Positions 58,185-59,976 of a DNA stretch of 64,000 nt are shown here, piece by piece (the first letter of the stretch is position 1; each line of letters starts with the position of its first letter). The notes under the pieces are model-generated. The model saw only the letters and a list, made by a program, of their open reading frames with translations, was not told the origin of the DNA and ran no database searches. This stretch comes from Escherichia coli. Lineage in GTDB: Bacteria > Pseudomonadota > Gammaproteobacteria > Enterobacterales > Enterobacteriaceae. Both the position numbers and the translations under genes were made by a program. The stretch is from assembly GCF_003334405.1 (NCBI RefSeq), contig NZ_QOWM01000004.1, one strand, 5' to 3'.

Positions 58185-58700
58185 TTAGCGATTCTCGATG
58201 GACTGACGGAGCGTACCCGCCGTGGCATGAACGCTACCGCCTAAGTAACGCACATCGTCGATGACCCAACACTGGCCTTCCTGAATCATTAACACTTCAT
58301 CCTGCCAACCCTGGTCACCCTGTTTGAGATCCACGCGCAATGGAATGTTACGGGCATCACGATTAGGGATAGTCGATGCACTGGCAACGTGGGCGCTATC
58401 TGGCAAGGTGGTTCGACTGGAGAATGGATCGTTGGTCAGTAGTTCCCGATGGTTATTATCCCGGGAGGCATCGCTAAGCAGTGTCGCCAGTTTGTCGCTC
58501 AGATAAGGGCGCAAGGCGGTGATGTCGTTGCTGCGGTGCAAAATGCGGTAGTCATAAAATTGCTGGGCCACGTTATCCGGGCCTCCTTCAACGCAAGGAC
58601 CACTGCGTGTGCCGTTATCTTTATAAGCTGGAGTGACTGTGGTGCAGGCACTGAGGAGCAGTGCGCAGGGGATAAGCATTGTCAATTTGCTGTAGCGCAT
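58185..58700 (-). CDS. ybjP: Lipoprotein YbjP
   Basis: ORF track 58185..58700 (-), 171 aa, lipobox LLSAC in MRYSKLTMLIPCALLLSACTT. Confidence 0.85.
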   Translation of the reverse strand: MRYSKLTMLIPCALLLSACTTVTPAYKDNGTRSGPCVEGGPDNVAQQFYDYRILHRSNDITALRPYLSDKLATLLSDASRDNNHRELLTNDPFSSRTTLPDSAHVASASTIPNRDARNIPLRVDLKQGDQGWQDEVLMIQEGQCWVIDDVRYLGGSVHATAGTLRQSIENR

Positions 58701-58825
58701 AATGATTTCCTTATAAGCGATCGCTCTGAAAGCGTTCTACGATAATAATGATATCCTTTCAATAATAGCGTATCAGTCTGATAATGCTTTTGAGATCGAA
58801 GGCTTAGCAAACAAGGAGATCGATC

Positions 58826-59149
58826 ATGCAATTTTCTACAACCCCAACTCTGGAAGGCCAGACCATCGTTGAATATTGCGGTGTGGTGACCGGCGAAGCG
58901 ATTTTAGGTGCCAATATTTTCCGTGATTTCTTTGCCGGTATCCGCGATATCGTTGGCGGACGTTCCGGTGCGTATGAAAAAGAACTGCGTAAAGCACGGG
59001 AGATCGCCTTTGAGGAATTAGGCTCCCAGGCGCGGGCGCTGGGGGCCGATGCCGTCGTCGGTATTGATATCGACTACGAAACGGTCGGGCAAAACGGCAG
59101 TATGCTGATGGTTAGCGTCAGCGGTACGGCGGTGAAAACGCGTCGATGA
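58826..59149 (+). CDS. ybjQ: UPF0145-family protein YbjQ
   Basis: ORF track 58826..59149, 107 aa. Confidence 0.85.
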
Positions 59150-59976
59150 GAAGATTCTTCTGGCTGGTCGCTGCCGCTCTGTTATTGGCAGGGTGTGCAG
59201 GCGAAAAAGGCATTGTCGAGAAAGAGGGATATCAGCTTGATACCCGACGCCAGGCGCAGGCGGCGTATCCGCGCATTAAAGTGCTGGTGATCCACTACAC
59301 CGCAGATGATTTTGATAGCTCGCTGGCGACACTGACCGATAAGCAGGTCAGCTCGCATTATCTGGTCCCTGCGGTACCACCGCGATACAACGGTAAACCG
59401 CGCATCTGGCAACTGGTGCCGGAACAAGAACTGGCCTGGCATGCGGGGATTAGCGCCTGGCGCGGGGCAACGCGCCTTAACGACACCTCTATTGGCATTG
59501 AGCTGGAAAACCGTGGCTGGCAAAAATCGGCCGGAGTGAAATATTTTGCCCCGTTTGAACCGGCACAGATTCAGGCGCTTATTCCACTGGCGAAAGATAT
59601 TATTGCCCGTTATCACATCAAGCCGGAAAACGTAGTGGCACATGCGGATATCGCACCGCAGCGCAAAGACGATCCGGGGCCATTATTTCCCTGGCAGCAA
59701 CTGGCGCAGCAGGGGATTGGTGCCTGGCCGGATGCGCAGCGGGTTAACTTTTACCTTGCCGGGCGCGCGCCGCACACACCGGTAGATACCGCGTCATTGC
59801 TGGAGCTTTTGGCGCGCTACGGTTATGACGTTAAACCTGATATGACACCGCGCGAGCAGCGGCGCGTGATTATGGCATTCCAGATGCATTTCCGCCCGAC
59901 GTTATATAACGGCGAAGCGGATGCAGAAACTCAGGCGATTGCCGAAGCATTGCTGGAGAAATACGGGCAGGATTAG
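59146..59976 (+). CDS. amiD: N-acetylmuramoyl-L-alanine amidase AmiD (lipoprotein, amidase_2 type)
   Basis: ORF track 59146..59976, 276 aa, lipobox LLAGC; start overlaps the ybjQ stop (ATGA). Confidence 0.92.

Follow-up and report, generated by a model that had tools for sequence, protein, structure and literature searches.

Organization of the ybjP/ybjQ-amiD locus

The genes ybjP, ybjQ and amiD lie side by side in a 64,000-nucleotide stretch of Escherichia coli DNA (RefSeq assembly GCF_003334405.1, contig NZ_QOWM01000004.1), which is referred to here as the window. By sequence comparison, positions 58000-60100 match E. coli K-12 MG1655 with 100% identity, and the RefSeq annotation of K-12 contains the same three genes, ybjP (b0865), ybjQ (b0866) and amiD/ybjR (b0867), so that sequence, gene boundaries and the 4-base overlap described below do not differ between the two loci. 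Genes, boundaries and overlap are all already known and present in every E. coli annotation, and functions and structures of AmiD and YbjP have been published. Solved structures are available for all three products (YbjQ, 1Y2I; AmiD, 2BH7 and 3D2Y; YbjP, 9QGY and 9V52). An Rfam search of 57900-60100 yielded no matches to RNA families. The following features were located:

58121..58153, minus strand: hairpin (58127-58153) with a short U-rich tail 3' of ybjP, from RNA folding
58185-58700, minus strand: ybjP coding sequence, open reading frame of 171 aa
58701-58825: divergent ybjP/ybjQ spacer, 125 bp
58756..58768, minus strand: sigma-S promoter of ybjP, putative -10 element TATTAT (58768 to 58763, preceded by GC), start site 58756
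58757..58785, plus strand: candidate ybjQ-amiD promoter, TTTCAA (58757-58762), 17 nt, GATAAT (58780-58785), read from the sequence
58813..58818, plus strand: Shine-Dalgarno (SD) sequence AAGGAG of ybjQ, 7 nt 5' of the ATG, from the sequence
58826-59149, plus strand: ybjQ coding sequence, open reading frame of 107 aa
59128..59134, plus strand: SD-like GGCGGTG within the 3' end of ybjQ, 12-18 nt 5' of the amiD ATG
59146..59149, plus strand: ATGA, amiD start on the ybjQ stop (-4 junction), from the sequence
59146-59976, plus strand: amiD coding sequence, open reading frame of 276 aa
59973..59976: convergent 3' ends of amiD (plus) and ybjS (minus), overlapping by 4 bases, from open reading frame coordinates and RefSeq

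The layout given in the original prediction was confirmed: open reading frames, profile matches and the identity to K-12 establish the three genes as ybjP, ybjQ and amiD, ybjP diverges from ybjQ across their common spacer, and ybjQ ends in an ATGA that overlaps the amiD start. The junction reads CGT CGA TGA in the frame of ybjQ and ATG AGA in that of amiD, so the four bases contain both signals.

The three gene products

YbjQ matched Pfam PF01906 (UPF0145/YbjQ_1, E=6.8e-39, residues 1-104) as well as the NCBIfam equivalog NF002776 (218.5 bits; cutoff 160), and is identical over 107 aa to the five chains of PDB 1Y2I from Shigella. The protein forms a pentamer (PMC4092069). Inspection of its N-terminus revealed no signal peptide, and the protein is presumably cytoplasmic. 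The heavy-metal binding suggested by the family name has structural comparison as its sole basis, and no experimental paper on it was found. The UPF0145 family comprises 6911 clusters at 50% identity, and YbjQ is 72-82% identical to the sampled homologues across Proteobacteria.

AmiD matched Pfam Amidase_2 (PF01510, E=7.4e-30) and the PDB entries 2BH7, 2WKX and 3D2Y (591 bits), being identical to the chains of 2BH7 and 3D2Y; a C-terminal PG_binding_1 domain gave a weak match (E=0.017). It is a zinc N-acetylmuramoyl-L-alanine and 1,6-anhydro-MurNAc-L-Ala amidase and an outer-membrane lipoprotein (PMC6403190, PMC2422844). The lipobox LLLAGC with Cys17 (59194-59196) is followed by Ala at the +2 position, hence by no inner-membrane retention residue, and is kept in at least 45 orthologues.

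YbjP was assigned to DUF3828 (PF12883, E=5.5e-33), which has an NTF2-like fold, and to NCBIfam NF007824 (327 bits; cutoff 200). It carries the lipobox LLSAC with Cys19 and is an outer-membrane lipoprotein. Its sequence is identical to a chain in PDB 9V52, 9QGY and 9TG4, the first two of which are TolC-YbjP complexes, and YbjP was recently described as a lipoprotein partner of TolC that does not bind peptidoglycan avidly.

ybjP is a separate transcription unit

The start site of ybjP was mapped by primer extension 56 nt before the ATG (Lacour 2004) and was confirmed genome-wide (PMC2760140). In our own reading TATTAT serves as the -10 element, which is of sigma-S type and conserved; across 14 species, CATAGCG in this region is the one stretch of the spacer with strong conservation. 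About 30 nt past the ybjP stop codon, the transcript is predicted to fold into a hairpin with a 9-bp GC-rich stem followed by AUUUAU, which is likely a weak intrinsic terminator that would make ybjP monocistronic. It is located upstream of the artP promoter (TTAACT-18-CATAAT, 58060-58031), which has been counted among constitutive promoters (PMC3946193). Taken together, ybjP is an independent, sigma-S-dependent and probably monocistronic gene, the product of which binds TolC.

The spacer between ybjP and ybjQ is variable. In about 21% of E. coli genomes no contiguous match spans it, and all six such genomes that were sampled break within the spacer. In the one O157:H7 genome examined among them, a 2.5-kb island separates ybjP from ybjQ, the open reading frames of which gave no matches in PADLOC, NCBIfam and Pfam searches, and a Citrobacter also carries an island at this position.

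Expression signals of ybjQ and amiD

The SD sequence of ybjQ is optimally spaced and is kept in 14 species. Its duplex with the anti-SD sequence (-8.5 kcal/mol) ranks 10th strongest among 61 genes of the window. The SD-like element of amiD, with a duplex energy of -6.3 kcal/mol, equals the window median; its distance from the ATG exceeds the optimum, and it is predicted to be paired in a small hairpin (z-score of the local fold -2.1). Spacing and hairpin may both lower initiation at the amiD start, as judged from the sequence. Since the element is of average strength, some independent initiation is possible.

Within the spacer, TTTCAA and GATAAT were identified as a candidate promoter of ybjQ-amiD, which interleaves back-to-back with the -10 element of ybjP. 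The consensus scan missed it because its -35 element matches at only three of six positions. GATAAT is kept in Escherichia, Citrobacter, Enterobacter, Phytobacter and Superficieibacter, and it persists to the right of the O157:H7 island. The scan for promoters and terminators detected no promoter-like site inside ybjQ and no terminator-like site between ybjQ and amiD. Being on the same strand, overlapping by stop and start and having no terminator between them, ybjQ and amiD have the features of a coupled operon pair. At the far end, no intergenic space is left for a terminator between amiD and ybjS, and terminator-like hairpins on the plus strand are found only within ybjS. A literature search retrieved no paper that measured co-transcription of ybjQ and amiD or the dependence of amiD translation on ybjQ.

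Conservation of the ybjQ/amiD junction

The conservation of the junction was analyzed in 80 species loci, 55 of them from Enterobacterales, of which 53 were informative. A -4 junction (ATGA, GTGA or TTGA) or a -1 junction (TGATG or TAATG) is present in 45 of these 53. Enterobacteriaceae have 26 loci at -4 and six at -1, Erwiniaceae three at -4 and seven at -1, and overlapping junctions were also found in Rahnella and Dickeya; overall, the overlap is retained in five families of the order. The genes are uncoupled, with both of them retained, in Serratia grimesii, Hafnia, Yersinia nurmii, Pectobacterium and Brenneria.

Overlaps of this kind are not unusual. Nine of the 39 same-strand adjacent gene pairs of the window overlap, and in seven of these the overlap measures exactly 1 or 4 bases (potH-potI, glnP-glnQ, mntR-ybiR, artQ-artM, moeA-moeB, ybjJ-ybjI and ybjQ-amiD), and the 4-base overlap of ybjQ and amiD is an ordinary operon feature. 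The other overlapping pairs share the ATGA or TGATG architecture typical of translational coupling, but mostly encode subunits or steps of one system. In this respect ybjQ-amiD resembles mntR-ybiR and ybjJ-ybjI, which join products that have no known common function.

Gene neighbourhoods of ybjQ outside the linkage zone

Linkage to amiD is confined to families of Enterobacterales. No Amidase_2 or YbjP gene was found within 5 kb of ybjQ in any of the 27 loci outside the linkage zone, a small sample picked by similarity to E. coli YbjQ, which comprises 25 loci from outside the order (Aeromonas alone provides 12 of the 27) together with Xenorhabdus (Morganellaceae) and Budvicia (Budviciaceae). 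The neighbours of ybjQ vary among these loci and none is conserved beyond the genus: an MccF homologue in Aeromonas, rdgB/hemW in Pasteurella, a CAAX protease gene on pXO2, and elsewhere gltS or chaA-like genes. Cluster representatives of more distant YbjQ proteins came from contigs of only 1-2.5 kb. YbjQ is an ancient, very conserved pentamer of most bacteria, usually encoded by a stand-alone gene with changing neighbours.

In Aeromonas the ybjQ orthologue is about 80% identical and its stop codon overlaps the next start as TGATG, like ybjQ-amiD, but the product of the downstream gene is closely related to MccF, the microcin-C immunity peptidase (417 bits to PDB 3TYX), and is no peptidoglycan enzyme. 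The downstream partner of YbjQ is thus interchangeable. This S66 peptidase also matched an LdcA model weakly and was considered as a second peptidoglycan partner, which was rejected after comparison to PDB structures (417 bits to MccF against 95 bits to LdcA).

In Acinetobacter, ybjQ genes come after adeK (PMC10132057). Given that a TolC-partner gene lies beside ybjQ in E. coli, a link between YbjQ and efflux was considered; in the neighbour clusters of the other ybjQ loci, outer-membrane-factor genes did not recur, and the link was left as coincidence.

A probable two-gene operon with translational coupling

We consider it probable that ybjQ and amiD constitute a lineage-specific two-gene operon, with translational coupling as a probable feature, which adjoins the independent gene ybjP. 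The pair would be transcribed from a promoter within the spacer, for which 58757-58785 is our candidate. The strong ribosome-binding site of ybjQ, the position of the amiD ATG on the ybjQ stop and the poorly spaced SD-like element of amiD together suggest that AmiD synthesis relies mainly on ribosomes arriving from the end of ybjQ, most likely by termination-reinitiation. Reinitiation would tie AmiD output to the expression of ybjQ, and the link between the two genes would be one of expression, not of common biochemistry. The arrangement probably arose when amiD settled behind ybjQ in an ancestor of Enterobacteriaceae, Erwiniaceae, Yersiniaceae and Pectobacteriaceae. The retained overlap fits genuine co-expression and translational coupling. 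Co-transcription, promoter position and reinitiation are all deduced here from sequence features.

Alternatively, the overlap could be incidental, with amiD expressed essentially alone from a promoter inside ybjQ, from its own SD-like element or from both, and with ATGA persisting only by phylogenetic inertia and by the constraint that two coding sequences impose. Overlaps of 1 or 4 bases are common, the SD-like element is of median strength, amiD is retained in lineages with gaps of 25-200 nt or rearrangements at this junction, and the sampled species are mostly fairly close relatives. Yet the promoter scan of ybjQ was negative, and the SD-like element is poorly placed and predicted to be paired. 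Moreover, the register (-4 to -1) and the start codon (ATG, GTG or TTG) shifted between lineages while the overlap stayed, which looks like maintenance and not like inertia. We therefore regard an incidental overlap as unlikely.

An envelope-related module is not supported

The original prediction further suggested that the three genes may form an envelope-related module, and it named co-occurrence of ybjQ with amiD across genomes as a check. That suggestion did not hold up: YbjQ has no signal peptide, ybjP is a separate transcription unit, and the adjacency stops at the order boundary. Such a module would imply that YbjQ cooperates with the amidase or targets it, with ybjP regulated jointly through the common spacer. 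Several observations are compatible with this, namely that AmiD and YbjP are both outer-membrane lipoproteins, that the order ybjP-ybjQ-amiD is present in 48 of 55 Enterobacterales loci with the overlapping junction retained, that the putative ybjQ promoter is interleaved with the ybjP -10 element, that YbjP folds like Tai3, which confers immunity to a cell-wall amidase effector, and that DUF3828 genes often adjoin peptidoglycan hydrolase genes.

However, the co-occurrence test weakens the idea, as AmiD homologues outside the order have no ybjQ upstream. Within the order the three genes also come apart: ybjP is absent in Pectobacteriaceae and Hafnia, where ybjQ and amiD remain, ybjQ is split from amiD in Serratia and Hafnia, and islands part ybjP from ybjQ in the O157:H7 genome examined and in a Citrobacter. 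The products share neither a compartment nor a known interaction, since soluble YbjQ stands against two outer-membrane lipoproteins, and the shown partner of YbjP is TolC. Taken together, there is no good sign of a joint function of the three genes, and we consider a module quite improbable.

Comparison to known systems points in the same direction. Tai3 and Tae3-type pairs come to mind, since YbjP has the DUF3828/Tai3 fold and only about 450 bp separate ybjP from a gene for a peptidoglycan amidase. But DUF3828 genes often share operons with genes for NlpC/P60 hydrolases, whereas AmiD is an Amidase_2 zinc enzyme, and ybjP is divergent, separately transcribed and parted from amiD by ybjQ. The authors who described YbjP put it in a family distinct from Tai3. 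The Pseudomonas aeruginosa enzymes AmpDh2 and AmpDh3 share homology with AmiD throughout the catalytic and C-terminal region (187-190 bits), but their genes have no ybjQ upstream. Unlike amiD, ampDh3 forms an operon with the downstream gene PA0808 and has a long 5' leader under AlpA control (PMC9998450). By analogy to AmpDh3-PA0808, YbjP was considered as an immunity-like partner of AmiD, which was not supported, as PA0808 is annotated as an SRPBCC-family and not a DUF3828 protein; judging by the reference list of PMC9998450, the effector-immunity claim for AmpDh3-PA0808 is itself disputed.

A long-kept overlap could reflect a functional tie that is invisible to gene-neighbourhood analysis. 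Its persistence in so many enteric species despite changes of register and start codon could thus point to a real dependency, in which YbjQ acts in the cytoplasm on the AmiD precursor or on murein peptides released by AmiD and YbjP, which might descend from an immunity protein against cell-wall amidases, places or restrains AmiD at TolC sites; this we hold to be highly improbable, and if it were true, the three genes would link peptidoglycan turnover to efflux-pump assembly.

Implications

As it stands, the locus matters little, and the useful outcome is a negative one: the ybjQ-amiD overlap should not be used to place YbjQ among envelope or cell-wall proteins. Of the E. coli proteins with no assigned function, YbjQ is one of the most conserved, and its gene neighbourhood yields no consistent clue. 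If translational coupling to ybjQ sets AmiD levels, this would add a small point on how cells hold the expression of a periplasmic amidase low and fixed.

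Organization of the ybjP/ybjQ-amiD locus

The three genes, the ATGA overlap and the divergent orientation of ybjP described in the original prediction were all confirmed by the ORF list, the sequence and the RefSeq annotation, in which the boundaries are identical:

58185-58700, minus strand, ybjP
58826-59149, plus strand, ybjQ
59146-59976, plus strand, amiD

The ATGA at 59146-59149 combines the amiD start with the ybjQ stop, and the divergent ybjP and ybjQ are separated by a 125 bp spacer. The region 58000-60100 shows 100% identity to E. coli K-12 MG1655 and many further strains, with a match in 5425 of the 5426 complete E. 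coli genomes; the entire window corresponds to the glnQ-to-poxB segment of MG1655. The arrangement is already known and ordinary. Rfam matches were obtained for RybB (42209-42287), naRNA4 (CssrE; 54985-55065) and two copies of ES036 (CssrF; 53963-54005 and 11870-11912), known E. coli small RNAs that are expected in a K-12 segment.

The overlap itself is not special either, as 9 of the 39 same-strand adjacent pairs in the window overlap, 7 of them by exactly 1 or 4 bases. Since some of these pairs (mntR-ybiR, ybjJ-ybjI) have no obvious common function, an overlap by itself indicates the same operon and not the same function. amiD and ybjS converge and share 4 bases at their 3' ends (59973-59976), leaving no room for a separating intergenic terminator. 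A convergent 3' overlap of this kind is also seen between gstB and yliI in the window.

Expression signals

Inspection of the sequence and its predicted folds yielded the following elements:

7 nt before the ybjQ ATG, plus strand, Shine-Dalgarno (SD) sequence AAGGAG (anti-SD duplex -8.5 kcal/mol, 10th strongest of 61 window genes)
12-18 nt upstream of the amiD start, plus strand, SD-like GGCGGTG (duplex -6.3 kcal/mol, the window median)
58121-58153, between the ybjP stop and the known artP promoter, hairpin followed by a short U-rich stretch

The amiD element is poorly spaced and predicted to be paired in a small hairpin (z=-2.1). A sequence scan detected no promoter-like sites inside ybjQ and no terminator-like sites between ybjQ and amiD. 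For ybjP, PMC2760140 (citing Lacour 2004) gives a sigma-S-dependent start site at -56, which corresponds to 58756, and the sole strongly conserved spacer block in 14 species is a -10 region matching this start site. A candidate ybjQ promoter, TTTCAA-17-GATAAT, may be located at 58757-58785; several genera conserve the -10 element of this candidate, which is also kept in strains bearing an island in the spacer. In the cross-genus alignment of the spacer (A1, columns 122-133), many genera (Enterobacter, Siccibacter, Pluralibacter, Phytobacter, Shimwellia and Cedecea) share a conserved block GCTAACGCATTGA some 20 nt 5' of the ybjQ ribosome-binding site; it is missing from Escherichia and Citrobacter.

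The ybjQ/amiD junction across Enterobacterales

A scan with one genome per species gave 80 ybjQ loci with 5-kb flanks, which were searched for AmiD, YbjP, ArtP and YbjS by tblastn and phmmer, after which the junctions were read. Of the 55 Enterobacterales loci 53 were informative, and in 45 of these ybjQ and amiD overlap, either by -4 (ATGA, GTGA, TTGA) or by -1 (TGATG, TAATG).

Table. ybjQ/amiD junctions in Enterobacterales
Enterobacteriaceae: 26 at -4, 6 at -1
Erwiniaceae: 3 at -4, 7 at -1
Rahnella (2 loci), Dickeya (1 locus): -4
Pectobacterium, Brenneria: gaps of 25-49 nt
Yersinia nurmii: gap of ~200 nt
Serratia grimesii: terminator 3' of ybjQ, an opposite-strand 528-aa gene, then amiD
Hafnia: ybjQ inverted, diverging from amiD
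Xenorhabdus, Budvicia: amiD not found nearby

Serratia grimesii and Hafnia paralvei are two natural uncouplings of ybjQ and amiD. The S. grimesii terminator (L046 5324-7144) is a GC-rich hairpin and the 528-aa product is proline/glutamine-rich and lipoprotein-like; in H. paralvei (L041 4103-5321) ybjQ alone is inverted, with amiD 40 nt away. ybjP was found in 48 Enterobacterales loci and was missing from Pectobacteriaceae and Hafnia, matching its published distribution. E. coli ST2747 (L082 6701-7132) is without ybjQ, amiD, ybjS and part of ybjT, so that ybjP is directly followed by a truncated ybjT, in a record of uncertain assembly quality with many frameshifted genes.

Linkage outside the order

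The co-occurrence analysis proposed with the original prediction showed that ybjQ-amiD linkage ends at the order boundary. None of the 25 loci outside Enterobacterales (Aeromonas, Pseudomonas, Thiothrix, Glaciecola, Mariprofundus and various metagenome-assembled genomes) carried an Amidase_2 (AmiD catalytic domain) or YbjP gene within 5 kb of ybjQ, and in these loci no conservation of ybjQ neighbours was found beyond the genus. Close same-strand neighbours of ybjQ occur in only a minority of these loci, and the partners vary from case to case. In Aeromonas the ybjQ stop overlaps (TGATG) the start of a gene whose product is closely homologous to MccF, the microcin-C immunity peptidase (L067 5001-6328; also L059 and L061), a different translationally coupled partner from that in E. 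coli; in two further Aeromonas loci (L055, L056) this gene lies one gene further along. Its assignment as an LD-carboxypeptidase, which would have given a second cell-wall link, was rejected in favour of the MccF homology. Further partners were gltS or a chaA-like antiporter gene, rdgB and hemW (Pasteurella and one metagenome contig), and, in Acinetobacter, adeK (PMC10132057). On B. anthracis pXO2 a YbjQ-family gene (L086 41900-42211) follows a CAAX-type protease gene; such genes were also present on more than 100 Bacillus plasmids, including many from the Bacillus cereus group. No ybjQ was found upstream of AmiD homologues on Pantoea, Salmonella or Piscirickettsia plasmids, or of P. aeruginosa ampDh3.

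Insertions in the ybjP-ybjQ spacer

Approximately 1,128 of 5,425 complete E. coli genomes do not match the ybjP-ybjQ spacer contiguously, and in all six sampled records the break falls at 58756-58771. In E. coli O157:H7 RV06 (L081 3440-6000) the break is due to a 2.5-kb island of 33% GC that replaces part of the spacer (58720-58765). The island has two ORFs, of 413 and 136 aa and in the same orientation as ybjQ, for which no Pfam, NCBIfam or PADLOC matches were found; on the island side ybjP is just 90% identical and the K-12 ybjP promoter region is replaced. At the same spot Citrobacter sp. FP75 (L004 2774-5000) harbors a 2.2-kb insertion with a QnrB-family quinolone-resistance pentapeptide-repeat gene (473 bits, cutoff 460) and two small uncharacterised ORFs. 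The spacer is unstable and appears to be an insertion hotspot.

Properties of the encoded proteins

YbjQ matches Pfam YbjQ_1 (E=6.8e-39), exceeds the cutoff of the NCBIfam equivalog NF002776 and is identical to PDB 1Y2I, an entry with five chains; the family is described as pentameric (PMC4092069). A signal peptide is absent. For a functionally uncharacterised protein YbjQ shows unusual conservation: the E. coli sequence shares 72-82% identity with those of Aeromonas, Pseudomonas, Thiothrix, Glaciecola, Mariprofundus and several metagenome-assembled genomes from other phyla (L052-L080). The family comprises 6911 clusters at 50% identity, and a GGR..YE motif (E. coli residues 44-51) is among its invariant positions. 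A literature search returned no experimental papers on YbjQ function; the family name 'heavy-metal-binding' is only a guess from structure, and in one screen ybjQ deletion shifted the ciprofloxacin MIC at most ~2-fold.

AmiD, a periplasmic lipoprotein (PMC2422844), has an Amidase_2 domain and a lipobox (LLLAGC followed by Ala) and is identical to PDB 2BH7/3D2Y. Its orthologues in Erwinia persicina (L030 5324-5420) and Yersinia nurmii (L048 5525-5620) have a signal-peptide-like N-terminus without the lipobox cysteine and may be soluble periplasmic enzymes instead of lipoproteins.

YbjP is a DUF3828 lipoprotein identical to the TolC-bound chain (3:3 complex) of recent cryo-EM structures (bioRxiv 10.1101/2025.03.19.644130 and 10.1101/2025.10.29.685381). 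The authors of these structures described YbjP as limited to some Enterobacterales and derived from Tai3-like immunity proteins, and saw no avid peptidoglycan binding (bioRxiv, 2025). As for YbjP as an immunity-like partner of AmiD, nothing was gained from the AmpDh3-PA0808 pair.

Interpretation of the probable ybjQ-amiD coupling

It had been proposed that the coupled ybjQ-amiD pair may form an envelope-related module with ybjP. The coupling was supported, with the overlapping junction retained in 45 of 53 loci, whereas the three-gene module was not. Against a shared biochemical role of the three genes, the linkage ends at the order boundary and was lost several times while both ybjQ and amiD were kept; YbjQ carries no export signal, in contrast to AmiD, a periplasmic enzyme anchored to the outer membrane; and ybjP is separately regulated, its documented partner being TolC. 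We consider it highly improbable that, behind the conserved coupling, YbjQ, AmiD and YbjP (the partner of TolC) are functionally linked.

The overlapping junction was kept through changes of register and start codon, an argument for maintained co-expression and coupling within Enterobacterales. As judged from these junction sequences, the best explanation is a true ybjQ-amiD operon, in which both genes would be expressed as one unit and AmiD would be made by riding on the translation of ybjQ.
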